In this document: positions 3,972 to 51,370 of the stretch, piece by piece | Numbering within the stretch: the first letter of the stretch is position 1 | Layout of the letters: each line of letters begins with the position of its first letter | IMG/VR virus record: IMGVR_UViG_3300001682_000284 | Source of the DNA: an uncultured virus (IMG/VR IMGVR_UViG_3300001682_000284) | Lineage: Duplodnaviria; Heunggongvirae; Uroviricota; Caudoviricetes | Length of the DNA: 64,000 bases | Direction: 5' to 3' (one strand) | Notes under the pieces: generated by a model | Databases searched by the model: none | What the model was told of the DNA's origin: nothing | What the model saw: the letters and a program-made list of their open reading frames with translations, nothing else | Position numbers and translations under genes: made by a program

Positions 3972-4047
3972 GTGACGACAGCGGGACTCAAACCCACACT
4001 CTTTGCATTGAAAGTGCAATGACTTAGTCTGTTAGTCGATGCCGTCA
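3972..4047 (-). tRNA. tRNA-Glu(UUC)
   Basis: Arm TTGCA-CTTTCAA-TGCAA; acceptor GACGGCA/TGTCGTC. Confidence 0.8.
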
Positions 4048-7047: not shown

Positions 7048-7403
7048 TGGTGGATCTGACGGGTACTGCCCCCGTGTCTTGACAATCTACTCTAAAGAAA
7101 TTATTTACAAGCTTAGTTTATTCCATCTTTAGTAATCTCTCGAATGGAGGACTTAAACAATCTCATTCGTTCGATATTCCATAATACTCTATTCAGCTAT
7201 TGGAACTCTTCACTGAAAGAGATTGATTATGGTCGTACTACCCTGAGGTACAAATCAATGAACCTCACTCAGAGTAGGCTGTCAATTAAGCAGCAATTTT
7301 GTATTCGTTGCCAGTTATTATACTGTTCGTTTTTTGACTATATAGTAGTCACTCTGCTTGTTTCTTTTATTCTCTTACACCCGTCGAAAGCCAATACAGC
7401 CCC
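7048..7403 (-). ncRNA. ssrA: tmRNA
   Basis: 5' GGGGCTGTATTGGCTTTCGAC, tag ORF GGC AAC GAA TAC AAA ATT GCT GCT TAA (GNEYKIAA), 3' GACACGGGGGCAGTACCCGTCAGATCCACCA. Confidence 0.92.
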
Positions 7404-9350: not shown

Positions 9351-9836
9351 TCACAATTTCTACCACTTTTTCTAATACCATATCCATGTGCCACGCAGGA
9401 ATATACCATTCTTGTCTACTGGCATCTTTGATAGCTATTGTGCTGGACCAACTAGTAGATTAATACTATTACCAAATATATTAGCAATATCCATTGCGTT
9501 ATCTATATTATATTCATTGAACCAATGATAGTGCTTCATATAATATGATAGATCAAAATCAGGATATGTATTAGTGAGATATCGTAGCATGCGTATGGTG
9601 AACTGTCCACGACCTGCACATAGATCGATATTATATTTATTTGGTAATGGTGGACATAACTATATCATATGATCTACTATTTGCAATGGGGTGAATACCT
9701 ATCCCATCTATTTCTTATTCTTAGTATTAATAGCAAATGGTGTATGCTATAGTATTGGAAATATAGTCATATCTATATCTGGTGATAGTCCAGTATATTT
9801 CTTGAATCTAGTCTATAGTTCGGATAGTGGTTTCAT
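9351..9836 (-). CDS. Small N6-adenine-methyltransferase-like SAM-binding protein (TAG-recoded)
   Basis: MG*VFTPLQIVDHMI (GEVFTP motif) and IDLCAGRGQF (motif I); no NPPY seen. Confidence 0.7.
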
Positions 9837-12800
9837 AGTGGTTTGTGCCCACCATAAGTGGTTTGTGCCCACCATAAGTAACTTTTTCATTAATTAGATA
9901 TCGTTCTTTCTGTTCTGGATCAAAATATTTGGCATATCTTTCTGCATCTTCTGGATAATAGTCTGGTATCCAATTGATAGCCCACCGTAATTCTTCATCA
10001 GTTAATCCTAATTCTTTTGCTACCATTTCGTCTGTCCATTCGTGAGTATATGTTGGCATGTACGGGACTGAAGATAATATTACGTTCTTATTAACTTTAT
10101 ATATTGATAAAGAAAATCTCATTAGCTTCAAATATAAATATTTAAAAAATGATAATTGTTCATTTGGTGTTTTAAACAAGAAATTGTTGTTCTTTTTATA
10201 TCTATCTGTAAGATGACTGCTTGGATTCTTAAGTTGGATAAATGTAAAAAAATCCCGTTCTTTTGTATTCCCTATAATGGAAGCAAATCCAACATTATAT
10301 GTTGCATCGTCTTTAATATCCACATGCATAGCTAGATTACTTTTAGTGCAATAATGTAGTACTTTATTTAAAATTGATTTATATATATCAGTATTACCAT
10401 GTTGGTCTATGGTGGATATATCAATTGGATTTCCACAGTTTTTATCAAATATATTTATAAATATATCATTTGGTGTGCCAGCAATATTAAACAATTTATT
10501 TGCGTTAATAACAGACTCATATCGACAAAGATCATTTGAAATTAATCCCTTTACTGTTTCCCCAATTGTCTTAGTCTTTTTTTCATTTTTTGATAATAAC
10601 CATCCTGCAGGATGAATAAAACACATTCTACCATCATCTGATACCAGTGGATATACTTCCTTTATAATCTTAAGATCTAGATTATTAGGATTATACGGTG
10701 GGTTACTTATCATGTAGTCAAATTTCATATCTTTATATTCCTTATGTAATTTCAATGCATCTTTTTGACACAGATTACATTTATAATTATTCTTATTCAG
10801 TAATATATTAGCCATATTAACTCTTATTCTATCAATATCATAGCCAAATAATATATTTTCGAGTATATATTTTTCTCTTTCTATATCATCTTCTATATAT
10901 GATTTCAGACCAATCATATATTGCTCTTTGGCATATAGCAGAAAGCTACCAGTACCCATACAAGGATCAATTATGGTCTTATGAGGATTGGTGAAATCTA
11001 CATCTAGCAATTCAAACATCCTCTTGATAATGACTAAGGGAGTCTTGCAATATGCACCCTTCATATTAAGATTCTTCCGTACGAACTCATCATATGATTC
11101 ACTAGTAATATTTGATTCAAAATAATCAAGAGCGTCAGCAAAATTTAATATAGTACGATTAATATCAACAATATCTACAAATTCTTTGGCAAACCAATAT
11201 TTGAAATCCTCTAATGAAACTCCTGTGATATCTCTGAATAGTTCATCTTCAGGAGTATTCATTATATCATCAACAGTTTTCTCATTATTCGGTGTTATAA
11301 ACAAAAACTCTGGCAATTTAGATATTGCTGTTCTTATCTTCTTAATGGTCTCCATTAATGATTTCTTATCTATATCTTTATCTGCACTATACTCAGGCAT
11401 CATACCATCATTGACTTTTGTATTGGACATGGTCTTGCCTTTATTAGTATCATTACTATTGACATCTACATAATCACTCTTCTGTGCACTCTTAACCTTT
11501 GATACACTATTTATTATCTTATCATCAATATATTTCGGATTAAGCGGGATCGAATAAAACCTTTCAGAGAATTTTCCATGCTCTCTGAAATTATTAATGA
11601 CATCAGATATATTGATCTCATTCCAACTATTATCCGTATAGTCTAGTATTGGTGCATAGTTCAGATACTCTCTAATACTATCGCTAATATTACTATTGAT
11701 ATCTTTATTAGTTCTTTCGCATATATCATATACCATAGATAGACATCTCTCAGGATTGAAATCGAATACATGGCAGTATTGTTTATTAATACTCACATTT
11801 GGTGATTGAGCTCGGAATATTGCCTGAGTGTACTCTTCCAAGGATTGTCCACTATCCAGCATGAATACACCATTCCACTCAGGAATAGTCACTCCCTCTT
11901 TGAATCTCTGGCAAGTGAGTGTAATAGTCCCTCTATTGTTGGATTTGGCTCGATTAATCATATTCTTAACATCATCTATTTGAGTGATCTCATTTCCTGT
12001 TGCTATAATAATCTCATATCCTGAATACTCAGACATAGTCTTCATCAAATTAGCGAGAGCAATGATTCCTTTAGTATTCTTTGGTAATACCCATAGAGTA
12101 TGATCGAGTCCTGATACTAATCTATATGGTGATAATGAGTTGTGTCCATATCGTCCTGCTATTGATTTTAGTAATAGTTCTGCAGATCCTTTGTATAGTA
12201 AATCATGGTTGCTATCGTCATACGCAATAATCTTATCTAATGTCAATCCCTCAGCATCCGTATAGTATTGTTGGGACAGCTTAGCATCATTAGATATTCT
12301 TATAATATGAGTTTTCATCGTAGGCATAGATATATGTGCACCATGACCAATTTTCAACTCTTTTTCTTTTTCTCTTTGCTCATCTATATATGTCCATGAG
12401 TATATTTGATCATCATCAAATCGTCCTCTAGCTATATCCTTATAGGCGGTGCCTGATACATATATAGTCTTTTCATGAGGAATAGTATTCAATAGATCTC
12501 TGAATGATATAGTATCACCACCATAATGATACTCATCTGCGATGATTGCATCAAATGTAATATTCCGAGATAATAGATTTGTCAGATTTTTCTGAAATTT
12601 CTTCACAACATCATCTAAATTGCCATTTTCGGATTTGTTCATCATCAATTGAGCACTCGAAAGGAATATATTGCATTTGGTGTCGCTAATATGGTTTATC
12701 TCTCTGTTTGTCTTATAATCGATGATCTGGAAATTCTCAAAAGCTACGTGATCATTGATATCATCTTTTAGCGAATCAAACACATAAGGTTTATATGTCA

Positions 12801-13431
12801 ATACTAATACATTTTTCCATTGCAATGATTTAGCCACATTCAATATAGTAAAATTCTTACCAAATCTCATCTTTGCGGCCAATAGAAATTCATCATACCC
12901 AAATTTGAATGCGTCAATAATTTTATCATGTGCAATCTTTTGTTCATCTCTCATTGGATATGAGTGGATTCTCGATACTCCATATAGTATAGTATTAATT
13001 CTTTTAATAATAGTTTCAAGATTGGTATTAGTAAAGAACTCCGTACTACGTATATTATCTAGAGCTTTATCATTACGATATGCTCCATCTTTTAGTACTA
13101 TATCTGAATGGAGTATATGTTCAATGTCATATGCTGATTTATATTTAGATTGTGATTTTATATATTCAGTGAGGTCTATTGCATATAGTATTAGTGCTTG
13201 TGTATTATGAGTGCCAAGATATCCATCAATAGTAGAAACAGGATTAGTACCTTCACTAGCATTTGTTCCATATTGACCAATCTTATATTCTATACCATCA
13301 TAATTAGTTGGCTCTTTGCTATTCTTAATGGGTGTCCAGATATATAGACCCTCTCCATTGATATCAAAGTTAAATGATTTATGCAATTGCTCTGTAACAA
13401 ATATTCCACGACCTTTTGTCGGATATATCAT
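9808..13431 (-). CDS. Fused SF2 helicase/ATPase and N6-adenine DNA methyltransferase (type IIG/ISP-like restriction-modification protein); no internal TAG
   Basis: AKMRFGKN (Walker A-like), DEYHYG, SGT, QAIFRAQSP; DPCMGTGSF and SNPPY; ends in TAG at 9808 (read-through would extend it 27 codons to a TAA). Confidence 0.85.
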   Translation of the reverse strand: MIYPTKGRGIFVTEQLHKSFNFDINGEGLYIWTPIKNSKEPTNYDGIEYKIGQYGTNASEGTNPVSTIDGYLGTHNTQALILYAIDLTEYIKSQSKYKSAYDIEHILHSDIVLKDGAYRNDKALDNIRSTEFFTNTNLETIIKRINTILYGVSRIHSYPMRDEQKIAHDKIIDAFKFGYDEFLLAAKMRFGKNFTILNVAKSLQWKNVLVLTYKPYVFDSLKDDINDHVAFENFQIIDYKTNREINHISDTKCNIFLSSAQLMMNKSENGNLDDVVKKFQKNLTNLLSRNITFDAIIADEYHYGGDTISFRDLLNTIPHEKTIYVSGTAYKDIARGRFDDDQIYSWTYIDEQREKEKELKIGHGAHISMPTMKTHIIRISNDAKLSQQYYTDAEGLTLDKIIAYDDSNHDLLYKGSAELLLKSIAGRYGHNSLSPYRLVSGLDHTLWVLPKNTKGIIALANLMKTMSEYSGYEIIIATGNEITQIDDVKNMINRAKSNNRGTITLTCQRFKEGVTIPEWNGVFMLDSGQSLEEYTQAIFRAQSPNVSINKQYCHVFDFNPERCLSMVYDICERTNKDINSNISDSIREYLNYAPILDYTDNSWNEINISDVINNFREHGKFSERFYSIPLNPKYIDDKIINSVSKVKSAQKSDYVDVNSNDTNKGKTMSNTKVNDGMMPEYSADKDIDKKSLMETIKKIRTAISKLPEFLFITPNNEKTVDDIMNTPEDELFRDITGVSLEDFKYWFAKEFVDIVDINRTILNFADALDYFESNITSESYDEFVRKNLNMKGAYCKTPLVIIKRMFELLDVDFTNPHKTIIDPCMGTGSFLLYAKEQYMIGLKSYIEDDIEREKYILENILFGYDIDRIRVNMANILLNKNNYKCNLCQKDALKLHKEYKDMKFDYMISNPPYNPNNLDLKIIKEVYPLVSDDGRMCFIHPAGWLLSKNEKKTKTIGETVKGLISNDLCRYESVINANKLFNIAGTPNDIFINIFDKNCGNPIDISTIDQHGNTDIYKSILNKVLHYCTKSNLAMHVDIKDDATYNVGFASIIGNTKERDFFTFIQLKNPSSHLTDRYKKNNNFLFKTPNEQLSFFKYLYLKLMRFSLSIYKVNKNVILSSVPYMPTYTHEWTDEMVAKELGLTDEELRWAINWIPDYYPEDAERYAKYFDPEQKERYLINEKVTYGGHKPLMVGTNHYETTIRTID

Positions 13432-13554: not shown

Positions 13555-15025
13555 TTATTTAATATGAGAGTATCTTTCATTATTAGTTACCTCTCTCACA
13601 AGAGAAAGTAAATCTTCGTATCCTTTTTTCAATACAAAGTTAATTGCATTCTGAGATGCACCAGAAACAAGTAATACATCTTTATCGTTCATTTGTGCTG
13701 GCAAATTCTTTAATCGTCCATTGACGTTCCAAAAGACAACAGTGGGCATAGTATAACCAGCATTAGCATATTCAGATTTAATCATTTCTAATGCATTCTG
13801 ATTTGGGTTCTGTGCACACTGGTCAAATTCCATATCAGAAATGATTACTACATGAGTAGGCATTTCATTCTCTGGAACTCTGTTAGCGTTAGCTCTGTCA
13901 AGAATCATACGGAAGACAGCCTCAAGGTTGGTATTCATGCCCCAAGGAGCATTCATGGTATTCTTTACCTTTTCTACGATGTCAGCACCAGTGATCTTTT
14001 GGAACTCTGGGCGATCGCTGAAAGTGATAAAGTAGTTACGGAAAGTCTCGTTAGGATTGTTCTCTGCCATGAACAGACCGATACCAATAGACATACTAAT
14101 TGGGATGTTCTGGTTGAATGTCATAGAACCGCTGACGTCGATGATAGGAATAGCTCTGAAGTCCTTTGGTAGGTCATCAAGTTGCTGTAATCCCTTCCAC
14201 TGCTCGTTTAGGAGCTGACGATTGGTGTCATTCATAGTGAATCTTGTGATACCACTATTCATGATTTCCTTAACGATTTCGTATGGGAATAGTCTCTTTG
14301 CATGAAGCTTAGCCTCGCCAGCAACTACCTTCTCCACGAATGGCTTAAGGATGTTGTGACGATGGAATGCCTTCTTGTACTTCTTCATTGCGATAGAAGG
14401 CACATGCTCGAGATTGATTTTGTCCCATTCCTTAGCAGACATGTTCTGCTCAACTACGTTAGTTAAGCTAACAATCTGGTGACGGTATTCGCTGTAAGAG
14501 TTGATGAATCCGTTGGAACGCATGTATCTTACGACCTTACCGTATTGGGAATTCTTACGAGGCATCCACTTAGCAACAATACCCTGAAGAGTCTTGTTCT
14601 TCATTAATTCGAATAGGAAGGTAATTATTGCGTCAGCTGACTCTTTCTTGTCGTTCTGAACAAAGTGATTTGCTAGATAGACTAGGTCGTCAACACGGAC
14701 TATGTTCTGGGTGAAGTTCTGATATTGTAGAACACTTTCTAAAATATTCTTATCGAGCCATTGTGCTACGACTCTGAAGAATCTACGTTCTCCAAGTCCC
14801 TTCTCAATGTCGCGAGCCCAGAATAGGATACGTAATGCTGAAGTTGCATCCTTCTGATATGCCTCGTTGAACACAGTAATTATATCGTTATCGGACATGT
14901 TACGTGCAGCTCCGCATAGGAAAAATAAATCTACAATAGGGTTACCACTTGAAGAGTTAGTAGCCATACCATTTGCAGTACTGGTGTTGTTCCTTAGATT
15001 TGCTTGAATGANTGAATGAGTTCAT
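13555..15025 (-). CDS. DUF2828/TROVE(Ro60)-like protein with a C-terminal VWA domain; no in-frame TAG
   Basis: FWARDI..GLGERRFF, AKWMPRK, DVSGSM (MIDAS), ISDMEFD, VFWNV; true ATG probably 15025 after AGGAG, with the frame broken at the N at 15012. Confidence 0.85.
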
Positions 15026-15791: not shown

Positions 15792-15868
15792 TGGCACCAC
15801 TAACGGGATTCGAACCCGTACAACCCGGTTTTAGAGACCGGTGTCCTAACCAATTAGACTATAGTGGC
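15792..15868 (-). tRNA. Amber-suppressor tRNA (anticodon CUA) with a tRNA-Glu-like body
   Basis: GCCACTA TA GTCT AATTGGTTA GGAC A CCGGT CT-CTA-AA ACCGG GTTGT ACGGG TTCGAAT CCCGT TAGTGGT G CCA; clean 77-nt cloverleaf. Confidence 0.93.
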
Positions 15869-15881
15869 ACAAAATTATTTT

Positions 15882-15953
15882 TGGAATAGATGAGATTCGA
15901 ACCATCACATCACAGATTTAGAGTCTGCCCACCTACCGTTAGGGTGCAGTGGC
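15882..15953 (-). tRNA. Second CUA-anticodon tRNA-like gene, degenerate acceptor (probable pseudogene)
   Basis: GCAGA-CTCTAAA-TCTGT arm, GGTTCGAATC, 5' GCCACTG without a matching 3' strand. Confidence 0.55.
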
Positions 15954-16009: not shown

Positions 16010-16597
16010 TTATTTTTTAATCTCTTCAAATACATCGGAGGCAATAATATCTGCCGATTGTAATAGAGTGGTCAACTTCGAGAACCTTCTTGCTTCATCA
16101 TAGATTTTGCCAGAAAAATAATCTGTCTCCATGAATGATCCCATATGGTAACGAATAGCTACTATTTCTTCATTAGTTAGAGCAACTAATGGTAATGCTA
16201 AAACTATTGATTTTGTAGCGTGTCCACAAGGAAAGGTTTCCTGTTCATCATATCCAGAATATTCCTACCATTTATTATTCTAATCCTTTTTCCACTTTTT
16301 GACAATTGTATAATGATTTATCTTACAAAGATCGTGACAGAATGCTACATAAAATATAGTTTCCTCTTGGAACTTATCAGAACCTAACATTTGATTTAGA
16401 TGGGATAGCACCTTGTAGACATTCTTACAATGCTGATATAGTCCACCCTCAAAGTTCCCGTGATTGTTTCTACTCGCAGGTGCGATAAAGAAGTCACCCT
16501 AAACTAAAAACTACAAGAATTTAGTGGGATCCCGTTTAAATTCAATGGTTTCTACTATTTCCATTAAATCCATAAAGTTCTTTGTTGCTAATGACAT
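16010..16597 (-). CDS. HD-domain phosphohydrolase (TAG-recoded)
   Basis: APAS..NHGNFEGGLYQH, CHDLCK, GHA, IRYHMG, LQSAD. Confidence 0.85.
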
Positions 16598-16811: not shown

Positions 16812-18143
16812 TTACATCTTTACAAGTGCAGTTTTTTCAAATATTTCTATTAGCTCTTCAATTGTTAGAATGATTAATAGGATTTCCGCAGGCAACCCCT
16901 TCGTTTCCTTTGTAAGAGTATCCCTAACCCATTCGTTTATTTCTTTATTAGAATAACCACAATCCGAAATATATTGCAAAATATTTTTTGCTTCTTTATC
17001 TCCCAGGAGAATACCAAATTCATTATTGAAATCTAGCTCCTTAACTTCCTTTAACTTTTCAACCAATTTTTTATAAAATGAAAGCTTGTGTGTGCTATAT
17101 AGTGGGACTTCAATATAACTAAATGCGTGTCGGATCTTATTCATTAATTGTTTGATATCCAAGCCAATTTGGTAAACGTATAAAAGATGATTTAATCTCC
17201 ATTTTGGAAATTCGTTTTTATATAATTCGTAATATTCTGCTATACCTTGCTCAGTTTTGGAATGCTTAAGATTAAGATTCTTCAGCTTCTTGGGATCATA
17301 ACACGCTGGAGATTTGACTAGTCTTTTTACTTCAAATTTCTCAATCAAATTCTGTTTAGTAAAGAACTCTTCATTTCCAGCAGGATGCCATCCCAACAGG
17401 GATATATAGTTGAGAATTGTGGATGGTAATAATCCCGTTTGTAACAAATGATTCACAGTAAAGTCTCCATCTCTCTTACTAAGTTTTTTACCCTCTTCAT
17501 TGCATATTAGAGACAAATGATAAAATTTAGGAATACAGAACCCCAATGCATTGTATATTAATTTATGATATGGAAATGAACTTAACCATTCATTTCCACG
17601 AAATACATCTGTAACCCCCATTAATCCGTCATCAACGATTGAGGCTAAATGGTAGGTGGGATATCCATCTGCCTTTAGTAAGACTATGTCATACAACTCT
17701 TTGGTATTATATTTAATAGTTCCTCGTAATTCATCTTTACAATTAATATAGTAATCTTCAGAATCCTTCACTCTTAATTTGATACAATAAGATTTGGAGA
17801 CATATGGGTTATTAGTTAAATTGCAGTTACATTCATCGGATTCTTTCTCACATTGACAAATGTAAGCACAGCCATTATTAACTAATTTGTGAGCATAATG
17901 TTGATATAGACCTAATCGTTCTGATTGTCTATAATACTCATCCCAATTTAACCCAAAGGTTTCAAGAGTAGACATTATCTCTTTGATATGCTTAGTCTTA
18001 CTACGTTTTTTATCAGTATCTTCAATCCTAAGGATGAATTTACCATTGTTTTGCTTAGCATACAACCAACTATATAGAGCAGTTCTTAAATTTCCTATAT
18101 GCATTTCTCCGGTTGGGCTGGGTGCAAATCTTGTAACAGTCAT
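16812..18143 (-). CDS. gltX: Glutamyl-tRNA synthetase (class Ib), TAG-free, divergent C-terminal anticodon-binding domain
   Basis: RFAPSPTG, HIGN, LRIEDTD, YRQSER, DGYPTYHLA, RGNEW, KLSKR, LLGWH; start MTVTRF at 18143 after AGGAG. Confidence 0.93.
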   Translation of the reverse strand: MTVTRFAPSPTGEMHIGNLRTALYSWLYAKQNNGKFILRIEDTDKKRSKTKHIKEIMSTLETFGLNWDEYYRQSERLGLYQHYAHKLVNNGCAYICQCEKESDECNCNLTNNPYVSKSYCIKLRVKDSEDYYINCKDELRGTIKYNTKELYDIVLLKADGYPTYHLASIVDDGLMGVTDVFRGNEWLSSFPYHKLIYNALGFCIPKFYHLSLICNEEGKKLSKRDGDFTVNHLLQTGLLPSTILNYISLLGWHPAGNEEFFTKQNLIEKFEVKRLVKSPACYDPKKLKNLNLKHSKTEQGIAEYYELYKNEFPKWRLNHLLYVYQIGLDIKQLMNKIRHAFSYIEVPLYSTHKLSFYKKLVEKLKEVKELDFNNEFGILLGDKEAKNILQYISDCGYSNKEINEWVRDTLTKETKGLPAEILLIILTIEELIEIFEKTALVKM

Positions 18144-18556
18144 TATATTGCTCCTTTTCCATGAATCCATTTGGCGATGTCTTCGGCAGGAACAAGATTA
18201 AATACTGATTCATTTACTGAACATATTGCCTCTATCATAGCCTTAATCCTTTCATCTGGATAAACTACTACAAATTTGTATGGACTTGAAATGGTACTGA
18301 CTTTATATTTGATAGCTATAGTGTAGTTTTCCATTCTATGAAATACGGCATCGTTTGAGAATGCTGGTGAAAATTTATCCCTGTTAGATCCGTGCCCGTA
18401 TTCAACATATAATCTTCCAGCCTTAATTTTATTAGTGGACTCATTAACTTCAATAATCTTGTAAAGAATCATTCCATATTCAGCGTTCACATTACCTTGT
18501 CCAGGATAAGCACAATACATTCCTGATTTAATTTCAGTTCCCAAGAAATCTGTCAT
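18143..18556 (-). CDS. Hypothetical protein
   Basis: ORF coupled to its neighbours by overlapping start/stop codons. Confidence 0.7.
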   Translation of the reverse strand: MTDFLGTEIKSGMYCAYPGQGNVNAEYGMILYKIIEVNESTNKIKAGRLYVEYGHGSNRDKFSPAFSNDAVFHRMENYTIAIKYKVSTISSPYKFVVVYPDERIKAMIEAICSVNESVFNLVPAEDIAKWIHGKGAI

Positions 18557-19338: not shown

Positions 19339-19538
19339 GACTTCTCTTTTACTTCTGGAATGAATATACAATCACTATTAGTAGCATAGTTAACACCATA
19401 TTCTGCAGGCTCGATAAATCTGTAAATCCACCCGCCAGGAACTCTAGTAATACTAAACAAATTGTCATCAGCCTTGTAAATAGTGTTTAGTGGCATATCA
19501 AGCATTTCTTCGTAAGTCATAATATGTAACTCCTTCAA
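19332..19538 (-). CDS. Hypothetical protein (RVPGGWIY family)
   Basis: RVPGGWIY motif common in small phage proteins. Confidence 0.7.
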   Translation of the reverse strand: MKELHIMTYEEMLDMPLNTIYKADDNLFSITRVPGGWIYRFIEPAEYGVNYATNSDCIFIPEVKEKSC

Positions 19539-20542
19539 TATATTGTTAATTCGTAATCTTCGGCTAATTCAGCCATTTCCCTATTATACATGGAAACGAC
19601 TACTAGTAAATATGCCCTCTTAATTGATTCATAATCGGCAGTTTTAGGGAGAGTATGCACCTTCTCCAATTCAGAAAGTCTTTCCTTGTATTCGTTTACA
19701 ATCTCAGGAACATCCTCAACGGGAGTGTTTCCAAGTTTAATGGACATGATGTCATCATATGCTTGCCCTTTAAATGGAAATTCAATCTTGCCCGCTGTAA
19801 GTAATTGATATCCCTCCTCTAATAAACGGATAGTGTGGGACATGAACTTTGGCTCATATTTATTAATAAAGATACCTTCAATTCTATGTGAGGCTCTTGA
19901 AAATCTATCTTCAATTCGAGCAATTGCTTCTTTAATTGTAATGCCAGATGGAAACTTCATATCACCAATTTCGTATACAATGTCTACAGGATTTTGATTT
20001 GCTTGACCTTTAAATAGTTCAGGGTCTAGATGGAGAACAGCTTCTCGCATTTTAGCTTGCTTTGTTTTGAGCTTGGCTACTCTCTTTAGTGAGTTCAAAC
20101 CTGCATTTAGTAAGACATAATTCTCAGACTTAGTATAAGACTTCTGCTCTTGAGACTTAGCGTAGCCAATGAATCTGTCGATTAATTTGGCATTAACAAA
20201 CATTTCAGGATGGTCAAGGATAAGAGATTTAAAGTCAGGGTCTACATATTCAATGCAATCCTCTGGCGCAAACAGCATTTCGAGTACATTGGGATTATTG
20301 TCAGCACACAGTTTAATGAACTTTTTCAGATGAAAATACTTCTCATCTACGGCATCCTTATCGTTCTTTCCATTCTCTTTCTTGGATTTAATGGACGTAT
20401 CCATTTCGTCCTTAGTATTGAAAGGGTCTATAAAGTCTTCAAAGGTATCTTCTATGTATACTCCCACATAGTCCAAGTCGGAAGTGGGAGTATTAAGTCC
20501 GTAAAGGTGTGAACCTGATTTAATTTTAAACAAAACCTTCAT
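19535..20542 (-). CDS. Pol-beta-like nucleotidyltransferase (RNA-repair-associated Nuc-transf family); TAG-free
   Basis: SGSHLYGLNTPTSDLDYVGVY, NPNVLEMLF, GYA, HTIRLL. Confidence 0.88.
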   Translation of the reverse strand: MKVLFKIKSGSHLYGLNTPTSDLDYVGVYIEDTFEDFIDPFNTKDEMDTSIKSKKENGKNDKDAVDEKYFHLKKFIKLCADNNPNVLEMLFAPEDCIEYVDPDFKSLILDHPEMFVNAKLIDRFIGYAKSQEQKSYTKSENYVLLNAGLNSLKRVAKLKTKQAKMREAVLHLDPELFKGQANQNPVDIVYEIGDMKFPSGITIKEAIARIEDRFSRASHRIEGIFINKYEPKFMSHTIRLLEEGYQLLTAGKIEFPFKGQAYDDIMSIKLGNTPVEDVPEIVNEYKERLSELEKVHTLPKTADYESIKRAYLLVVVSMYNREMAELAEDYELTIY

Positions 20543-20598: not shown

Positions 20599-21561
20599 TC
20601 ACTTTTTAATCTTGTAATACCTACGTTTTAGAGGTGTAGTTGCGAATTTAACCCTGTAGTATTTACTAAACTCACAAAAGCAGTTCTGGATGTTAGAAAG
20701 TGACAAATATCTCTTATCCTATGGTAAATCACACATTAATTCTTGCAAACTCACACCGTAATAATTCGTTAGCCAAGTGTTTAAATTCTCTTCAACGAAA
20801 TGTATGAACAAATATCTTTTGGTTACGGGAATCTTCGGACAAACGATGTCTACTCCCCTCAAAGCTCCCTCTCCCAGATGTACGAAGTCATTCTCCGTGA
20901 GTTTTGTCTAGGGACAATAAGTTAAATCTACATATATCTGGTAAGCCAAAAATGGTCCAATTCCCTTGATGGATAAAATCTCATCAAAGACTTTTGTTCT
21001 ATTATCATTTAATATGTGCTATACGATTGTCTAAATATTCTACTTATAGCATTTCCAAACGATATAGAATGGTCTTAGATTGGGTGGAATGCTCTAGGCA
21101 AAGGTATCGTGTGCCCTGACTGCTCCACTATGCATGTATGCGGGTCTATATAGAATTTCATCTGTGGCTATATTTTCTATGTGATAATTTAAGAATTCGT
21201 TGAAGTCTTCATTCTTAATAAATGACTACCTTATGGGAAGTTTAATTAGCTTATACTTTGATGGTTCATTAAAGATTCTAAATATAATGAGGTTAATTAC
21301 CTTCTATTTGAGAGTCAATTCCTTGTTTAAGCATATCTCATTAAGGGCGAACTTCGTAACAGTGTCCTAAATTCGTCTTACATTTGTAAAGGAATAGGAT
21401 TTAAGAATTTCATCTTCCGTCCACGGATAAGGTTTGCCCTCAACATCCTTTAATAAGTGAATCTTGTATCTCTATATAATCCAATAAAGAAATAGCTTAA
21501 GATTCTCCTCATTCAAATTCTAATCTATAATAGGTTTAATCCTTTCATAGATTTCACTCAT
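20599..21561 (-). CDS. alpha-glutamyl/putrescinyl thymine pyrophosphorylase clade 1-like (5hmU DNA kinase family)
   Basis: PYPWTEDEILKSYSFTNVRR, IIFRIFN, GIGPFLAYQICVD, QNCFCEFSKY. Confidence 0.8.
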
Positions 21562-22093
21562 TTATCAATTCCTTTAATTTCTATTTTAATTGATCATAGG
21601 CTTTGATATCGTCGCAACAGACATTAATAACATTCAATCCTAATTGTTCTGCATATCTTGCAATTCTAGCTGAACCAGCGGATTTAGTTATAAGATTCTG
21701 AGTTCTTTTGAGATTCTTGGGCTTACCCTTACTTCTATGAAAAACTCTTTCCTATAATGTATCCAAGGAACAGAACAGATGTATTATAGTAATATCTCTA
21801 TGAAATTTCTTTTGTAGTTCTAAAAAATAGTCAATATTTATAAGGGATAGAACTATCATACCCTACATTAAAACTATATCCTTATCACCCATCCAAATCT
21901 TTTTTAATACATCTCTTCTTTCATTATTTGTGGCTCTCATAGGGTCTGCACCTCCAGTGTAGACTCCCTATACCTATTTCTTTTTATATTCTCCTACAGC
22001 CTACGAACTTTTAAATGTATCTAAAATCCATCCAGCTGTAGAACTTTTACCGGTAGCGTTAGCTCCTATTAAGTGTATAAAGTGTTTCTTCAT
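21554..22093 (-). CDS. P-loop nucleotide kinase (hypermodification cluster)
   Basis: GANATGKSS, YTGGAD, VLM*G. Confidence 0.8.
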
Positions 22094-23115
22094 TTAGCCC
22101 AATCCTTGCATGGGGGTTTGTGCACCAGAGTCATATCTTCCAATGGTTGATCATCGCTCCACCATCCCACATCCTATTTTGTTATATAGCCTGTTTTAAT
22201 TAGGTTTTTAATGTTTTCTAAGGCAATCTTTCTCTTCTTGGTTCCGTAAACATCTGTATGTCTTCCGGTTAACTTGAATATCTTGAACATTTCAAGGTTA
22301 AAGGGTAAAGGTTTAGGGAATTTCAACCAAGGATTCTCTTCTATTATTTCTATGGGACTCTTGCCCGTATTAAGCATTGCATCTACTAATTCCTGACAAT
22401 AGAAGGTACAACTTCTAATTTCATCTAAATCTAGCGTTGGTTGAAAGTGCCTGAATTCTATTGTATTTGTTTGATCAAATAATTGCATAAAATTGACATG
22501 CAATCTACGGCACAATGAGTATATAGGTTTACCAGTAATTTTATTTCTGTTAAATCTAGACATGTAGAACTATTGAGGATCTTTTGATTTCATTGTAAAA
22601 TTATATTTATCCTAACTTAATTGAAATACAAAGCTATTCTAAAATCTATATGCTTCTTGTGCTAATTTGTAATCCTATTCGTTAGGAAACTATATTCTAG
22701 TGGGTTTTGGAAACACACTAAATGATAAATCCGCTATTTCCCTTTGCCACTTGTAGAAATAAGTCCATGCCTTTTTCAGGTATTCTATATCCTAAACAAG
22801 ACCTGGAACTCTTACATGAACATGGTGGAAACAGGAATAATTGATTGATAATTTACCCTGTTCTCTTAAAACCTTAAATATCTTATCACATTCCTGAACT
22901 TGCCCCTAGATTGTAGGAGTGGGTTTAACATTAACTTCTCCACCATATCTATTTAATATTTTCCAAGGATCATTTCCTATTCCATTGCTATTAGTTATAT
23001 CTACTTCTTTAGGGTTCCACTTATTTCCCTATGGTAATATAATTTTGGTATCAACATCTGCTAATTCCAACTCCGTTCCATAATCAAATGTCTATTTAGG
23101 ATATTTGTGATCCAT
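22090..23115 (-). CDS. Putative amidoligase (COOH-NH2 ligase)
   Basis: YGTELELAD, GGEVNVKPT, HHVHVRVPG, TIEFRHF. Confidence 0.8.
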
Positions 23116-23121
23116 CCGAGA

Positions 23122-23706
23122 TTATCCTCTCTAAGTTATTAATTCAACTATTTTCTGTCTAAAGACAGGGAAATCCTACTTGTTAGTAGTGTCATATTCG
23201 TGAATCTACAATTCTGTGCTATCTCTGAATTTAGCTAAATCTTGAACTGCGGATCTTGTTCTAATGCCCAATCTTTTTACTCTTACATCGGTAAGTTCTT
23301 TTCCACCACTTCTTTCAGTGATACGAACTCCCAGCTCTTCGATAGTGGCGTAGAGATGAATAACTAAAACTATTCTATCCTTCATCTTTTTCATATCGAT
23401 ATAATGCTGTAATTGCTTATGTCCGCTAAGGAACATCCCTTCACCAATGACTACATCAGCATCGGACATCCATTTCTATGTAATTAATGCCATTCTTTCG
23501 GCATCGTTCATACTAGCCTTTCTCTCTTTGGAATGGAGGGCATCGGCTCCACCAGTATGGTATGATCTACCATTTCTTATTCTGTATGTTCCTACAGTTT
23601 CTACTGTAATTCCATGTTTAGGGAGCTATTCCGATAGCCAACCTGCTGTTGAACTCTTGCCTGTTGCATTAGCTCCAAAAAAAGTGATGTAATACTTGCT
23701 TTTCAT
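23122..23706 (-). CDS. P-loop nucleotide kinase, paralog of 21554..22093
   Basis: GANATGKSS, HTGGADAL, VIGEG. Confidence 0.8.
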
Positions 23707-24764
23707 TTTGATTCCTTTTTTATTTTATTCTAGTAAATGTTTCCGATAGTAGGTACTGATACGCTGTGTAAATATGTTAATTCTTGAGGCAAAGAGGGAT
23801 TGAACATATGATCATCCGTAAACCATTTCATTGCTGGTTTTCTAATACCTTTCCAATTTTGTTTTTCACCTAATACTTCGTGAGGGAAGTATTCCTCTCT
23901 AAATTCCCAAAAAATATTCCAATTAATACCTTCCGTGATGTTCTTTTCGCTTGTTATAATCTACTATTGCTGACGATCGATATAGTAACCTAGATACCTT
24001 TTGTTCCAATATAGCTTTTTGTAAGCACATAATACTGTCTATATGTTCCAATATGTTACAGGCAATTCTGGAAGCACTTCCTTAAGATTATCGTAAAGTT
24101 CAACTAAATGAGTTTTTAAAAAGGGATAATCTATTGGTTTCTTAGAAGGTTTATGGTGCATGGTAATCATATCAAGTTCATCAAGAGCATAACATAATCC
24201 GTTTCTGCAACTCTAAGCCTATTTAAGTTCTAATCCTGTTGGATGTATGGGAATTTGAGTTAGTTCAAATACAGCCTATATTAGATTAAACAAACTGAAT
24301 CTTCCATAATAGAATAGCTTGGAAGTTTCTTTGTAAATTTTATTATAGCTTTCAGCCTAATTTCCTTCAATAATTAATTTGTGGTAAAAATTCTATTGGT
24401 TCTAGCCCATTATCTCTTTGTAACTTTTAATCATTTCGGGTACTTTGTTGAAGTTCTTAGCTTTAGCTCTATCCGTTTGGAAGAATAGCTTAGACTTCTT
24501 ATCGTTCCACCAGCGTTGTACTCTTTCTAAGTTTACATTTTCGAAGTCGGGGAATTCATTAAACATATAATAGGCTGTGGGTGCACAATAGGATATACTA
24601 TATAAATACGCCAGCCAATAGCGTTGCTATATGTTTAATTCATGCCTATCTGCAATGTATCTTAAAGAAGGATATGCTGGATCGCAGTCCCCTATGTACA
24701 TCATCAAGGCATAGTAGTTGATAAAATCCTGTTTACGATTTCCAGTAACCTTGAATTCATTCAT
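23703..24764 (-). CDS. alpha-glutamyl/putrescinyl thymine pyrophosphorylase clade 2-like (amino acid:DNA transferase)
   Basis: DCDPAY, LNI*QRYWLAYLY, FQTDR, YYGRFSLF, CRNGLC, NI*TVLCAYKK, RYLGYYIDRQ. Confidence 0.8.
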
Positions 24765-25396
24765 ATTATCTCCTAAATCTTAAAGGATTCAACCATAGTT
24801 AAGTTTTTAACTAGTGATGGACTTATTCTAGCTATAGGATCTACTGCTGAAATAAACATTTCTAAATCCCCATCCTAATAGTGGTAGAGGGGTCGTTTGT
24901 TATTTCTAAATCCTAGTAACTTATCGGGTGTCAACATACATGCAGCAAGACTCCAATTAGGATATCTTTTCAATAAATCCAATATGGAGTGTCCCTATTC
25001 CATTAACTTTAATAGTATTTGAACATCGTTATCATTGCTAGCATCAATATCGTATAGTCTATGCCAATTAGAGGAATCACTCTGTTCCAACACTCCATTA
25101 AAGGAAATGTACCCTAATTTCTCATCGCCTTGTGGTAAATTGTTATCCATATCATCATAGTTTCCACTAGTGGAGTACCTATTATGGAATAGAATCTTTG
25201 CACTGGGGACACAAACTATCTTTAGATATTCCTATATCTAATCCAAATCAAACGTCTTATAAAGATCATATTTACCATTAATTAATGATACTATCCCATA
25301 CGCATGCGTTCCTCTTATATTAAGAGTCTCAATAGCTCTTGACAATACCTAATATCCCTATGATCTTTTAACTTTTGCTCCAATTATGCCACACAT
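24761..25396 (-). CDS. Class II (Ntn) glutamine amidotransferase
   Basis: N-terminal MCGIIG, RGTHAYG, HNRYSTSG, FNG, RPLY. Confidence 0.85.
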
Positions 25397-39993: not shown

Positions 39994-41370
39994 ATGATTA
40001 AAAACAATAATTACTATCTTCAGGAAAAACAAAAATTTATTAACAATAATGAAAAGGATATATTGAATTATATCAATTCTTTATTAACTAGTACTGATAT
40101 TGTGAAGAAATTTTCAAATTGTGGCATATCGGAAAGAAGATTAAGGCGTTATATATATTAGGTGGCTAAAGGTAATGGATTAAGTTAGTTGTTGGAAAGT
40201 TCTACAAGAAAATATACTAATTGCAATTTATTAGTAAAAAATGATTTAGTTAGTAAGGCTATTACTAAAAAGTATGAGGCAAGTAAATCGTTAATTTTTA
40301 AAAAGATTGAAGAAGGTCTACCATTATCGAGTTTATCCAAATTTATCGGTATCGAATCGAGGTCAATATTTAGTAGATTACCTTAGAATTATAAAGCTTT
40401 AATAGTTAAAAATAATAAATTTCATAAATCCAAATCCAGTAAATTATATCATCAATTAAAGAGAGATGAAGATTATTAGCGGTATTAGAAGTTGATATTG
40501 GAGTATGTGATGCAAAATAATTGTAAAGTTTCTATTGGAGATTTAGAAAGGCATTTTGGTCAATTAAATTGCATTAAAAGAGTATTAATTAACAATAAAT
40601 TATACGATGTAATTAGGTAGTATGGGAAAGAGTTAATGCTGCATGCGTCCAAAAGGGCTTCAATAAAGGGAGCTAATAAAATAAAAGAGTTGTATAGGGC
40701 TGTAAGGGAAGAATAGATTCAGAAATACGAAAAGACTTTTTTATAGCTGATAAAGGATGAACGTCCGTTATCCTTTATAGAGAAAGATGCTATATCAAAA
40801 TCTATATCAATTGCTACGGTTGAATATCTTTTTAAAAAGTATAAAGATATTAGGTGTAAATGGGAAAATTCTAAATATTACAAAAATCCTATGTATGGTA
40901 AACAACCATCTTTAAAAGCTGGAATTGGTTCTTCTGGTTGGATAGTGATTGAAAATCGTAAGATTTTCTTTAGAAGTACATTATAGTGTCAAATTTATTG
41001 TTATTTGTTAATGAATGACATAGAGTTTTAGTTATCCAAACACAAAATTCCATATTGGTTCGAAGGAAAGGTTAGGAACTATTTTCCTGATATTAATATT
41101 GGAAAGACCATTTTTTAGATAAAGCCAAAAGGACTTATTAATTTAAAACAAAATTTAGCTAAATTTTAGGCAGCAAGAATTTATTGCAAGAAGCATTATT
41201 TAGAATTTGGGGTATTGACTTAGTAGAATTATCCCATATATGAAAGGAATGTTAATGAGTATATTTCTGCACTCGTTAATGAAAAAGCTATCATTTTTAC
41301 AAATGAAAGAAGTAAATTAAAATTTATTAATGCAAGGAAAGAATATGAAAGAACAAGTTATACCAATTAA
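39994..41370 (+). CDS. Free-standing PD-(D/E)xK (TnsA-like) homing endonuclease inside the fractured recA
   Basis: NPMYGK, FFRSTL*, IPY...RNYFPD, IF*IKP, K..AA..YC. Confidence 0.8.
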
Positions 41371-42631
41371 GTAGATTAAATAGCTCTTATCGCAAGGTAA
41401 ATAGATCTATATATAGAGTTTAGGTGGGTATTAGAAAGTATCCAATTATATTTAGAAAGGAACATTAAAAACTTATAAAGTTACTGTTGATAATGGATAT
41501 TTTGTTAAAGTTTCTGCAAAACATTTATTCTTTTAGATGTCTAAAGGGTGGATATTTTGTAAAGATCTAATTGTTAATAGTTCTATGATATTATGTGATG
41601 ACGAACAATATCATAAAGTTCAGTTTATAGAGGAAATAGGATATCATAAAATAGTAGATATAACAGTTTAGAACACCTAGTGTTATTTTGGTAATGGGAT
41701 ATTACATCATAATAGCGGGAAAAGCTTAGTATGTTCTCACTTAATTAAGTCCTGTCAAGACATGGGTGGAATCCCAGTATTAATATAGACGTAGGCAGCA
41801 ACTAGTTTACCATTTTTGTAGGCTATTGGTGTAGATCTAAATAAATTGATACATTATAGATTCCAAACAGTTTAGAAGATTCATAAAGTAACAGAATAGT
41901 TAATGTATTCTGTAAAATTATAGATGCCTGATGTTCCTATGTTAATTGTTGTTGATAGTTTAACTGCTGCAACAACATAGGCTTAGCTTAAGAATACCGA
42001 CTATTAGAATAAGGGATACAATGCAGCACTAAAGGCAAGAATGAATTCCCAAGCATTCTCTAAGTTAACAATGATGGCAGCACAACAGAAGGTAGCATTA
42101 GTATACACTACCCAAGTTAGAGCTAATATGAATATGGCTAATCCTTATATGGATCCATATGAAACCTCAAGCGGCGGGATGGCTCTTCCATTCTATGCTA
42201 GTATTAGAATTAGATTACATAGATCTTCTAAATTAAAATAGAATATACATGGAGTTCCAACAGTTGTAGGCTCCACTGTTAGGGCTAGAATTGATAAATC
42301 TAGATTAGGTGCAACCTTTAGATAGTGTACTTTTGATGTGTATTATGATTGTGGTATCAATAATTATACTAACTGGCTATCCACTTTAAAGGCTTATAAA
42401 GCGATAGAAGGAAAGGGTACAGTTAATATTCCTTGGATAATCAAAACTGAAGGCAAGTAGATTAACTTAGGGAGAGACTTCTTTAAGACAATAAGAAGTG
42501 ATGCATAGATAAGATAGAAAGTATACAATATAATTGCTGATCTTTTGATTCTTAAATATAAGAAGGTTTAGGATACTGATAATAGATAGATAATTTCTGA
42601 ACCAGATTAGGGAATGACTGTAGATTAGTAA
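41345..42631 (+). CDS. recA: C-intein (about 123 aa) plus RecA/UvsX C-terminal half
   Basis: ...IVDITV*NT*CYFGNGILHHN|SGKS...VLI*T*AA...IVVDSL...TQVR...SGGMALPFYASIRIRL. Confidence 0.88.
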
Positions 42632-47047: not shown

Positions 47048-47244
47048 ATATTAGTAAAGGTGTAAATCGCTAGTTCACAGATGAATTAGAAGGATTGCTA
47101 AATAAGTATGGAGTAGATGCATTAGTTGGGGTTCAAGACTTTGTTTTGGCTCATACTATAGAACGGATTTTAAATGCGTTAGCCTGGCAAAATGAAGAAG
47201 TTAAAAGATTAAGGGGATCTGGAATGGAGGATAAAGTAATATGA
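47044..47244 (+). CDS. Hypothetical protein
   Basis: F..EL..LLNKY.......DFVLA; ATGA couplings on both sides. Confidence 0.65.
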
Positions 47245-48860
47245 AGATGATAAAGACTTCAGATGAAGCAAGAAATTCGATTAAAACCGGAATTGACAAA
47301 CTAGCAGACTTAGTAAAGGTTACAATCGGACCAAAGGGTAGGAATGTCATTATTTCGAAAAACTATGGTAAGCCAGTTATAACCAATGATGGTGTAACTA
47401 TTGCAAAACAAGTGTAGTTGTAGGACTAGTTTGAAGATTTAGGTGCAAGAATATGTAGGCAGGTAGCAGAAAGGACAAATGAACAGGCTGGGGATGGAAC
47501 CACAACTGCTACTATTTTAGCTCAAGCCATTATTCAATAGGGTAACAATCACTTACAGAAGGGAGTAAATTCTATATTTTTGCAACGCTCCCTTGAAAAG
47601 TATGGGAATGAAATAGTAACATATATTAAGACTCTGGCTAAAGACATATCCAGCCAGCAATAGATTGAGCAGATTGCTTCTATCTCAGCTAATAATGATT
47701 CTTAGATAGGTAAGATTATCTCCATGGCTATTAAGTAGGCGGGAATTTAGGGAGTTATTAATGTTGAAGATTCTAAAACTATGTAGACTTGGCTTGAAAA
47801 GGTAGAAGGAATGTAGATTAATAACGGGTTTATATCCCCTTATTTTATATCTGATTCTGTTAAAATGCAAGTAGAATTAGAAAATGCCTATGTGTTAGTA
47901 TTCAATTCTAAATTATTCAATCCTCAAGAGATGCTTAATATATTGAAACAAGTAGCCGAAAAGAATGTTGCATTACTTATGTTGGTTGAAGATCTTTAGG
48001 GTCAAGCATTAGCGACATTAGTAGTTAACAAAGTTAAGGGAATACTTAATGTTTGTGCAGTAAAGATACCTGGAATGGGTTAGAATAAGAAGGAAATTGC
48101 CATGGACATATGTGCAATTACTGGAGCCGAATACCTTTCTAAGGATTTAGGTCATAAGTTAGAAGATGTCAAACTCTCCCAGTTAGGATTTGCTAAGAAG
48201 GTTATCGTTTCCTAGAACTCCACGATTATAAGAGAGGGTTCAGGAGAAAGAGCTAAATTAGAATAGCGTATTTAGTCTATTAAGTATAAGATTGATAAGT
48301 CTTCATCCTTTTCAGAACAAGAGAGATTACAAAAAAGAATTGCTAGAATATTAGGCGGAATATCAATCGTTCACGTCGGTGCGCAAACCTAGATGCAATT
48401 GAAATAGAAGAAATATAGAATTGAGGACTCATTGCACGCTACTAAGGCTGCAATCGAATAGGGTATTGTACCTGGTGCAGGCAACACTTTACTTCAGTCT
48501 TATCAATATCTTATGACACTAGTGCCTAATACTTAGGAAGAAAGAATAGCTATCTAGATTCTAAAGCAGGCAGTATTATCGCCAACAAAACAGATTATTT
48601 ATAATACAGGTGTGGAAGATACAAAAGAGATAATATCGTAGATTCTAGCCAAGAATGATTTTAATTGGGGCTACAATGCATTAAATAATAAAGTTGAAAA
48701 CTTGTTAGAAGCAGGTGTAATAGATCCAGTTAAGGTAGTTCGTTCAGCTTTGCAAAATGCTATTAGTATTGCAGGCTTGTTCTTAACTACTGAAGGTATC
48801 ATTCTATAGAAGAGAACTTAGGAAAGTGAACAACAAAGTTCAATGTTTAGCGGGATGTGA
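47241..48860 (+). CDS. groEL: Chaperonin GroEL
   Basis: [50 protein letters not shown]. Confidence 0.95.
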
Positions 48861-48862
48861 TA

Positions 48863-49087
48863 ATGGCAGAAATATATAAATACATTATAGGTAAATTAAA
48901 TGTTAATGGGGTAAAGAAATAGAATATTGATTCTTATCTTTAGATGGTTAGTAATAATCTCAAATTAACACAGGGATTTAATAATGTAATTGTAGTTCCA
49001 ACAACTTAGACCGAAAGCAGATTTAAGATTATATATTAGATTAAGGATAATAACGGCAATTACCACATTTAGGATGTTGAAATATGA
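48863..49087 (+). CDS. Hypothetical protein (TAG-recoded)
   Basis: Fills the gap between groEL and nrdJ, ATGA-coupled. Confidence 0.55.
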
Positions 49088-51327: not shown

Positions 51328-51370
51328 TTATAATTGATATTAATTAATAGTAATTAGGAGCAAACATTGT

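Follow-up and report, generated by a model that had tools for sequence, protein, structure and literature searches.

A TAG-free glutamyl-tRNA synthetase gene lies upstream of a CUA suppressor tRNA gene in a T4-like phage in which TAG most likely encodes glutamate

Gene content of the window and use of TAG

The window, by which we mean the whole 64 kb stretch of DNA that was analysed, is a segment of a T4-like phage with a G+C content of approximately 33 %. Pfam matches identified genes for a T4-type baseplate protein, a RecA-like recombinase, a DnaB-like helicase, a family B polymerase, a ribonucleotide reductase, GroEL, ClpP and thymidine-hypermodification enzymes, and the nearest phage records in GenBank share no greater than 32.5 % identity with it in the helicase. 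Near-identical DNA was found in activated-sludge, digester, wastewater and landfill sequencing runs (20 runs with part of the stretch, from 17 studies); a contig over the stretch came from an RNA library, and no sign of transcription is to be read from it.

TAG is a sense codon in this phage. Translation with code 11 yields seven ORFs of at least 150 aa versus 44 when TAG is read through, and 37 of the 42 tabulated ORFs contain TAG (515 TAG in 14,438 codons, 3.57 %). These 37 genes end in TAA (20) or TGA (17) and never in TAG. The other five tabulated ORFs are TAG-free, and one of them has a TAG stop.

Several further features were recorded in the window. A gene for a helicase/N6-methyltransferase of 1207 aa (9808–13431, minus strand) is TAG-free and ends in TAG, and reading that codon as sense would add 27 codons, to position 9727. 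A phage tmRNA at 7048–7403 on the minus strand (Rfam RF00023, 66 bits, gathering score 47) was not called by ARAGORN. Intein splicing-domain matches fall in the RecA-like gene (41330–42631, plus strand), in the family B polymerase gene (56992–59955, plus strand) and at two places in the ribonucleotide reductase gene (49084–53717, plus strand), which is split around a 345 aa ORF (51371–52408). The thymidine hypermodification cluster (20599–25396, minus strand) encodes a 5-hmdU DNA kinase, an amino acid:DNA transferase and an amidoligase-like protein.

The CUA tRNA gene

ARAGORN found eight tRNA genes in the window, one of them with the anticodon CUA (cta) at 15792–15868 on the minus strand. The initial annotation, which gave no strand for this gene, had described a clean 77 nt cloverleaf with anticodon CUA, an encoded CCA and discriminator G, and all of these features are present. 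The label 'tRNA-Pyl' assigned by ARAGORN derives from the anticodon alone. The gene is the top of six window matches to the Rfam tRNA model RF00005 (68.4 bits, gathering score 29, E=8.8e-13) and at minimum energy it folds into a full cloverleaf (stems of 7, 4, 5 and 5 pairs); the fold energy does not mark it out (z=−1.51, with 15 of 200 shuffles equally stable).

The acceptor stem consists of G1•U72, C2:G71, C3:G70, A4:U69, C5:G68, U6:A67 and A7:U66, and the first pair is hence G1•U72 rather than U1:A72, as had been noted before. It is followed by U8 and A9 and by a D-stem (GUCU/GGAC) made up of G10:C25, U11:A24, C12:G23 and U13:G22, which encloses a D-loop of 9 bases, one of them an extra U that follows G18-G19. 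Position 26 is A, the anticodon stem CCGGU/ACCGG carries the loop CUCUAAA, the variable loop has 5 bases (GUUGU), and G73 precedes the encoded CCA.

A second, degenerate tRNA-like sequence, also on the minus strand at 15889–15945, lies between the suppressor and the next gene upstream, which encodes an HD-domain protein. It shares the CUCUAAA loop of the suppressor but lacks an acceptor stem, matches the Rfam tRNA model at 17.2 bits (E=2.9) over model positions 9–63 only, and was not called by ARAGORN. In other strains it carries 1-base deletions at 15891 or 15899, and it is probably a decayed duplicate. The phage also encodes an ordinary tRNA-Glu(UUC), called by ARAGORN at 3972–4046 on the minus strand, which has A73, no CCA and an unusual D-stem (GACU/AGUC) that differs from that of the CUA tRNA.

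The adjacent glutamyl-tRNA synthetase gene

A gene 940 bases upstream of the CUA tRNA gene on the same strand (16812–18170, minus strand), unmentioned in the initial annotation, encodes a bacterial-type glutamyl-tRNA synthetase (GluRS) of 452 aa and contains no TAG. The product, which is the proposed charging enzyme, matches PF00749 (E=3.3e-85) and TIGR00464 (gltX_bact; 363.2 bits against a cut-off of 289.95), and scores just 52 bits with the GlnRS model. Among PDB entries, GluRS chains match at E=9e-66, and GlnRS chains at 1e-9 or weaker. An AlphaFold model made with 30 sequences (pLDDT 89.9) aligns with full-length bacterial GluRS, both discriminating and non-discriminating, at TM 0.72–0.78, and the profile alignment extends through the C-terminal helical domain. 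The Pfam anticodon-binding domain PF19269 was not detected in the phage enzyme at E values up to 0.001, though the helical fold is still present. Thermus GluRS reads C36 of its tRNA through an arginine (Arg358), and the matching residue was not found in the phage protein, the alignments to the Thermus chain stopping at residue 331.

The protein database contains 31 full-length relatives that share 42–98 % identity and have PF00749 alone. PF19269 is missing from all 31 members of this clade, while 86 of the 89 next matches, which are cellular GluRS, carry it. In a FastTree tree of 118 rows, which left out three sequences shorter than 400 aa, a branch supported at 95 % separates the 31 clade rows (the window and 30 others) from the rest; the tool warns of long branches meeting at this point. 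Two clade members, P0130 and P0511, are filed in public MAGs named Tissierellia bacterium and Candidatus Diapherotrites archaeon, and are probably phage contigs that were binned with cells. A single-query GluRS search of viral contigs gave no match. The GluRS alignment gave 71 loci in viral contigs, none of which exceeded 54 % identity or belonged to the GluRS clade; in metagenome contigs, cellular GluRS were among the matches listed (at least 80 loci) at no more than 44 % identity, and the alignment patterns were the universal GluRS motifs.

Between the GluRS and CUA tRNA genes lies the gene for the HD-domain protein (16010–16597, minus strand; PF01966, E=1.9e-4, 22.2 bits, cut-off 22), which contains 4 TAG. 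The flanking genes on either side are TAG-free: one (13555–14967, minus strand) encodes a DUF2828/DUF7788/vWA protein and the other (19535–20542, minus strand) a nucleotidyltransferase of the RlaP type found in RNA-repair systems. Together with the HD protein, the two suggest an RNA-maintenance neighbourhood. None of eight small neighbouring ORFs matched a Pfam family, a promoter/terminator scan gave no signal (14 promoter-like sites versus 15.6 expected), and no release factor gene was found among the ORFs of at least 150 aa in the 64 kb window.

The CUA tRNA and GluRS genes are linked in the window and in near-identical strains, as contigs from two other runs span both genes at approximately 98 % identity. 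Within the CUA tRNA gene, four runs showed three differences. Two of them (A4 to G and A24 to G) preserve the pairing through G•U, and the third (G44 to A) falls in the variable loop. Two relatives further removed may likewise combine a member of the GluRS clade with a recoded GroEL.

The amino acid encoded by TAG

The meaning of TAG was examined using the GroEL gene (47241–48860, plus strand), which has 23 in-frame TAG, and the intein-bearing gene for the ribonucleotide reductase large subunit (49084–51327, plus strand), in which 17 of the 37 TAG fall in usable extein columns. In a log-odds test, column scores were summed for each codon over the 20 amino acids, with GroEL aligned to 78 cellular homologues and the reductase exteins to 95 distant ones. 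For the 40 TAG columns, Glu scored +40 bits, Asp −50 and Lys −87, with Gln below all three. As a control, the test was applied to the 40 sense codons that had 8 or more columns. It identified 39 of them correctly and failed only for CAA, where Lys and Gln were almost tied.

Cellular GroEL proteins have E in 49 % of cases at the TAG columns, which is close to the 53 % found at Glu-codon columns and unlike the Gln-codon columns (E 22 %, Q 20 %). Both results count against the alternative that TAG is Gln, as published for the phages with 'genetic code 15', the tRNA then being charged by the host GlnRS or glutamylated and subsequently amidated by GatCAB. That alternative is in line with papers on recoded phages, which in their accessible text report reassignment of TAG to Gln alone (10.1101/2021.08.26.457843, PMC11210395), and TAG does occupy one invariant Gln column of GroEL.

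At the 19 TAG columns that are strongly conserved (one residue at 80 % or more), the residue is Glu in 13, Asp in 2, Lys in 2, Gln in 1 and Thr in 1. Such a spread, like the mixed identity features of the CUA tRNA described below, could reflect ambiguous decoding, in which TAG usually gives Glu but Gln or another amino acid is inserted at a considerable rate, owing to several charging enzymes or partial amidation. However, strongly conserved GAA columns scatter in the same way (17 of 21 are Glu, and the others include Asp, Gln and Ala), so ambiguous decoding is not needed to explain the pattern and appears most improbable.

Other proteins were less informative. In the helicase (144 homologues at approximately 30 % identity, 24 TAG columns), Asn scored +14, Glu +8 and Asp +1 with Gln outside the top four, and we consider this alignment uninformative rather than contrary. 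The TAG codon for residue 155 of the RecA-like protein (41792–41794, plus strand) faces the Glu of the IDAEHA stretch in E. coli RecA, which we take to be the catalytic Glu96. Aligned by eye, 4 of 10 TAG in this protein face Glu in E. coli RecA, and the remaining six lie opposite D, K, R, A, G and Q, once each; in ClpP, just 2 of 6 aligned TAG face Glu.

Database translations of phage relatives show Q at the TAG columns of the window (98 % in the ten closest). We take these proteins to have been translated with table 15, and the Q then is no evidence for Gln. When relatives were pooled (32 for GroEL, 25 for the reductase and 6 for the helicase), 695 of the 1251 cells in the TAG columns of the window held Q and 330 held E, and columns with Glu codons in the window held 'Q' in 494 of 1763 cells (28 %), whereas E was present in merely 59 of 1073 cells where the window has true Gln codons. 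Hence, it is TAG, rather than CAA or CAG, that exchanges with Glu. Considered alone, this pattern would fit TAG as Gln with very frequent replacement between Glu and Gln, but it no longer does when combined with the columns that are invariantly Glu in cellular proteins.

The GluRS gene stands apart. At its 37 Glu columns, 'Q' fills 33 of the 1057 cells from 29 clade relatives (3.1 %), compared to the 28 % for GroEL, reductase and helicase, and avoidance of TAG in this gene is conserved over the clade. For the window gene, the chance of containing no TAG is 7e-8 at the genome TAG rate and 2.5e-9 given its 37 Glu codons. Amino acid composition agrees weakly with Glu, in that Glu plus TAG makes up 8.6 % of TAG-bearing genes versus 6.6 % Glu in TAG-free genes, the corresponding values for Gln being 6.5 % (Gln plus TAG) and 2.5 %.

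Judged from these alignments, TAG most likely encodes Glu in this phage. The proposal in the initial annotation that the CUA tRNA is the decoder of TAG as Glu is thus supported by independent protein evidence, namely the log-odds test on GroEL and the reductase, the relatives and RecA, and the presence of a TAG-free GluRS gene beside the CUA tRNA gene reinforces it.

Isotype of the CUA tRNA

The CUA tRNA had been described as built on a tRNA-Glu body, and this description has moderate support. A BLASTN search of 50,697 phage records gave seven matches at 76–77 % identity, and all six that are annotated are tRNA-Glu. No match was found in E. coli genomes at E values up to 10, and proteobacterial-type tRNA-Glu from the loci analysed stood in for E. 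coli tRNA-Glu in the comparison. Isotype profiles were built without the anticodon from 231 ARAGORN tRNAs in these loci, including 14 tRNA-Glu and 25 tRNA-Gln. The Glu-versus-Gln profile, which was correct for 39 of 39 tRNAs in a leave-one-out trial, gave the CUA tRNA +14.5 bits in favour of Glu, compared to +17.9 for the phage tRNA-Glu(UUC) and +43 to +73 for bacterial tRNA-Glu. A classifier for 16 isotypes, with an accuracy of just 90 of 150 held-out tRNAs, also placed Glu at the top, but with a negative score (−10.0), ahead of Ile (−16.7), Gln (−24.9) and Trp (−25.9).

The largest contributors to the Glu-over-Gln score were position 1 and the extra D-loop base. Position 1 is G in the CUA tRNA and in 14 of 14 reference tRNA-Glu, while the 25 reference tRNA-Gln have U (21) or A (4), and the extra D-loop base of the CUA tRNA is missing from all 25 tRNA-Gln. 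The CUA tRNA also lacks the U1-A72, G2-C71, G3-C70 and U38 and the short D-loop of tRNA-Gln. On the other hand, passages of PMC9976931 list a GlnRS identity set with which the CUA tRNA shares, fully or approximately, G73, G10, U35, A37 and a weak first pair. With the log-odds ranking, the GroEL columns and the tRNA features all pointing away from Gln, we regard TAG as Gln as very unlikely.

The likeness of the D-arm to that of E. coli tRNA-Glu, which the initial annotation had stressed, stands only in part. Both U11:A24 and U13:G22 are present. However, by our own count the D-stem GUCU/GGAC occurs in 11 of the 25 reference tRNA-Gln and hence does not tell Glu from Gln, and in contigs from four other runs position 24 is G, so that U11•G24 replaces U11:A24. 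In the passages of PMC9976931 on E. coli tRNA-Glu, the identity set includes U11-A24, U13-G22, the A46 triple, the absence of residue 47 and C36, with weak contributions from G1-C72 and U2-A71. The CUA tRNA has kept U11-A24, U13-G22, U35 and A37. It lacks A46, G1-C72, U2-A71 (C2:G71 instead) and C36 (A36 instead), and with a variable loop of 5 bases the absence of residue 47 is missing too. Of the anticodon pattern YUC followed by A37, C34, U35 and A37 are kept, and position 36 is A. Overall, the sequence places the CUA tRNA closer to tRNA-Glu than to tRNA-Gln, though not strongly, and it appears idiosyncratic.

Two other origins were considered and rejected. The anticodon arm and A9 resemble those of E. 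coli tRNA-Trp, but the CUA tRNA scores −25.9 against the profile of six tRNA-Trp, compared to −10.0 for Glu, and the TAG columns are not Trp. The hallmarks of tRNA-Pyl are a short D-loop, a 3-base variable loop and pyl genes nearby. Here, the D-loop has 9 bases and the variable loop 5, no Pyl family is among the Pfam matches, and the TAG columns point to Glu.

Glutamate attached to a tRNA can be amidated to Gln, and the initial annotation argued from the first pair that this should not happen here. According to passages of PMC9976931, U1-A72 is the pair on which amidotransferases depend, whereas G1-C72 and U20a are antideterminants. The CUA tRNA has neither U1-A72 nor G1-C72 and carries the extra U after G19. 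With no U1-A72 and with the extra D-loop base of the tRNA-Glu type, a host amidotransferase should leave Glu-tRNA(CUA) unchanged, and escape from GatCAB is a reasonable prediction. The Glu outcome at TAG supports this.

Related CUA tRNAs in other genomes

A degenerate pattern combining the Glu-type D-arm with CUCUAAA was searched for in public contigs, and the matches included two kinds of CUA tRNA. Glu-type tRNAs (L183, L190 and L189, all on MAG contigs) have G1•U72, G73 and a long D-loop and score +30 to +35 bits for Glu over Gln. Gln-type tRNAs (L097, L101, L102, L192, L098 and L106) begin with U, have a short D-loop and score −37 to −62 bits; a U1-A72 pair is present in the first four, and L098 and L106 have U at position 72 as well. 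The three Glu-type suppressors share G1•U72, G73, GUCU/GGAC, the long D-loop and CUCUAAA with the CUA tRNA of the window, and differ from it in having a 4-base variable loop and other acceptor sequences. In L189, a tRNA-Glu(UUC) with G1•U72 adjoins the suppressor. This tRNA and that of L126 (CUC) are the 2 of the 14 reference tRNA-Glu with G1•U72, so that the pair recurs in phage-associated tRNA-Glu and in their CUA derivatives and may offer a handle on how amidotransferases distinguish Glu-tRNA from Gln-tRNA.

No GluRS gene was found on the L183, L190 and L189 loci, and five viral records with related CUA tRNAs gave no GluRS match; such tRNAs can thus work with host enzymes. On the L097, L101, L102, L183 and L190 loci, no homologues of the reference proteins were found, and there were too few TAG exchanges to separate Gln from Glu.

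An exact 22-base tRNA pattern had no match in genome contigs. The 17-base anticodon arm of the CUA tRNA has an exact match in 16 viral loci (L001–L016), at 11 of which ARAGORN called a CUA tRNA. The bodies of these tRNAs, long-arm tRNAs included, are unrelated, which suggests convergence on one suppressor anticodon arm. Two further loci (L100, 8001–8030; L107, 8001–8028) combine the Glu-type D-arm with the CUCUAAA loop, have an unpaired acceptor stem and were not called by ARAGORN; L107 is a 192 kb viral record with a tmRNA and tRNA array like those of the window. On a 376 kb Chloroflexia MAG contig (L192), the CUA tRNA at 9965–10037 is almost identical to the tRNA-Gln(CUG) of L057 and L086 and may be a bacterial amber suppressor or a variant. 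A GluRS match (11960–13426) lies approximately 1.9 kb from it.

A proposed mechanism for the code switch

We consider it likely that the CUA tRNA decodes TAG as Glu and is charged by the adjacent phage GluRS, GluRS and tRNA(CUA) together forming a code-change module. Both the identity of the charging enzyme and the order of events in the code switch are points that we infer. Early in infection, the host would stop at TAG, and only TAG-free genes, including the GluRS gene and the block up to 20542, would be completed. As the GluRS gene contains no TAG, the enzyme could be produced while the host still terminates at this codon, and the CUA tRNA gene itself would require no translation. GluRS would charge tRNA(CUA) with Glu, and the amidotransferase would ignore the product. 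As GluRS and tRNA(CUA) accumulate, the TAG-bearing genes, approximately 90 % of the total, would become fully translatable.

The weak link in this scheme would be the pairing of GluRS with the CUA tRNA, given the five viral records without a GluRS match and the existence of tRNA-Glu(UUC) as an alternative substrate. The same two observations, the latter strengthened by the unusual D-stem of tRNA-Glu(UUC), favour a scheme in which TAG is Glu and the CUA tRNA decodes it, but the host GluRS does the charging, the phage GluRS serving tRNA-Glu(UUC) or simply boosting translation. Synthetases of other large phages are thought to boost translation, and GluRS homologues are present in many unrelated large phages. 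Against charging by the host, the phage GluRS gene is 940 bases from the CUA tRNA gene and 12.8 kb from that for tRNA-Glu(UUC), it is TAG-free across the clade, and a recognisable Pfam anticodon-binding domain is missing in 31 of 31 clade members. In addition, GluRS depends strongly on the anticodon, including C36, in the passages of PMC9976931 that deal with it, and A36 should therefore be a poor fit for a host enzyme. We therefore regard charging by the host GluRS as unlikely, though far less so than TAG as Gln or ambiguous decoding.

Charging by the phage GluRS is thus the reading we favour, and a bolder form of it, to which we give roughly even weight, is that the GluRS clade represents a synthetase dedicated to the amber suppressor, with a remodelled anticodon-binding domain that recognises CUA, and that this self-contained pair switches a standard-code cell to TAG as Glu. 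If so, the clade-wide lack of TAG in the GluRS gene would be the bootstrap signature of the switch.

Comparison with known systems

What is new here is the TAG-free gene for a bacterial-type GluRS upstream of a CUA suppressor tRNA gene. In full-text searches of the literature, and as far as the retrieved text extends, UAG as Glu appeared only for ciliates and in general papers on the code, TAG as Gln was the only meaning given for phages, and nothing was found on a phage GluRS paired with a suppressor; supplementary files (Table S2 of 10.1101/2021.08.26.457843) might list synthetases. Phage papers and gene callers take a sense TAG as Gln, and the database proteins of the relatives consequently show Q where the evidence says E. 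Wrong residues at approximately 3.6 % of positions in most genes would distort annotation, structure prediction and proteomics searches. If the module is real, GluRS and tRNA(CUA) would do for TAG what the TGA/TrpRS module described below does for TGA and would provide a testable account of how a phage imposes its code on a host, and a natural GluRS/tRNA(CUA) pair would be of interest for genetic code engineering.

Compared to bacterial GluRS (TIGR00464; PDB 1j09, 2cfo, 3afh and 6b1p), the phage enzyme keeps the catalytic domain, the overall fold and the C-terminal helical domain, but it belongs to a separate clade (95 % support) in which PF19269 was not detected. Its presumed substrate has A36, in contrast to C36 in tRNA-Glu and G36 in tRNA-Gln.

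Some ciliates have nuclear codes in which UAG is Glu (PMC11687900). The codon meaning is the same as that proposed here, but those codes are eukaryotic and nuclear, with no phage, no conflict between host and parasite codes and no known dedicated synthetase gene.

Among phages with a code unlike that of their host, the accessible text of the preprint by Borges et al. (10.1101/2021.08.26.457843) gives only TAG to Gln and TGA to Trp. For the 'genetic code 15' phages, which include crAss-like and Lak phages and others, TAG is reported or assumed to be Gln by Borges et al. and by Peters et al. (PMC9523058). The phage examined here resembles them in encoding a CUA tRNA, in its heavy use of TAG as a sense codon and in having a subset of genes in the standard code. 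It differs in that TAG aligns with Glu and in that the CUA tRNA is Glu-like rather than Gln-like.

The closest parallel is found in the Jade phages, for which the same preprint, in its accessible part, describes a TGA 'code change module' comprising a suppressor tRNA, TrpRS and RF1, all in the standard code. The mechanism proposed above copies the logic that Borges et al. applied to that module and is drawn by analogy with it. Here, the codon would be TAG instead of TGA, the amino acid Glu instead of Trp and the enzyme GluRS instead of TrpRS, and there is no release factor among the window ORFs of at least 150 aa and no recognisable lysis cassette adjoining. In both cases, as far as the preprint describes the Jade module, the suppressor tRNA gene has beside it a gene for the synthetase of the same amino acid, and this synthetase gene avoids the recoded codon.
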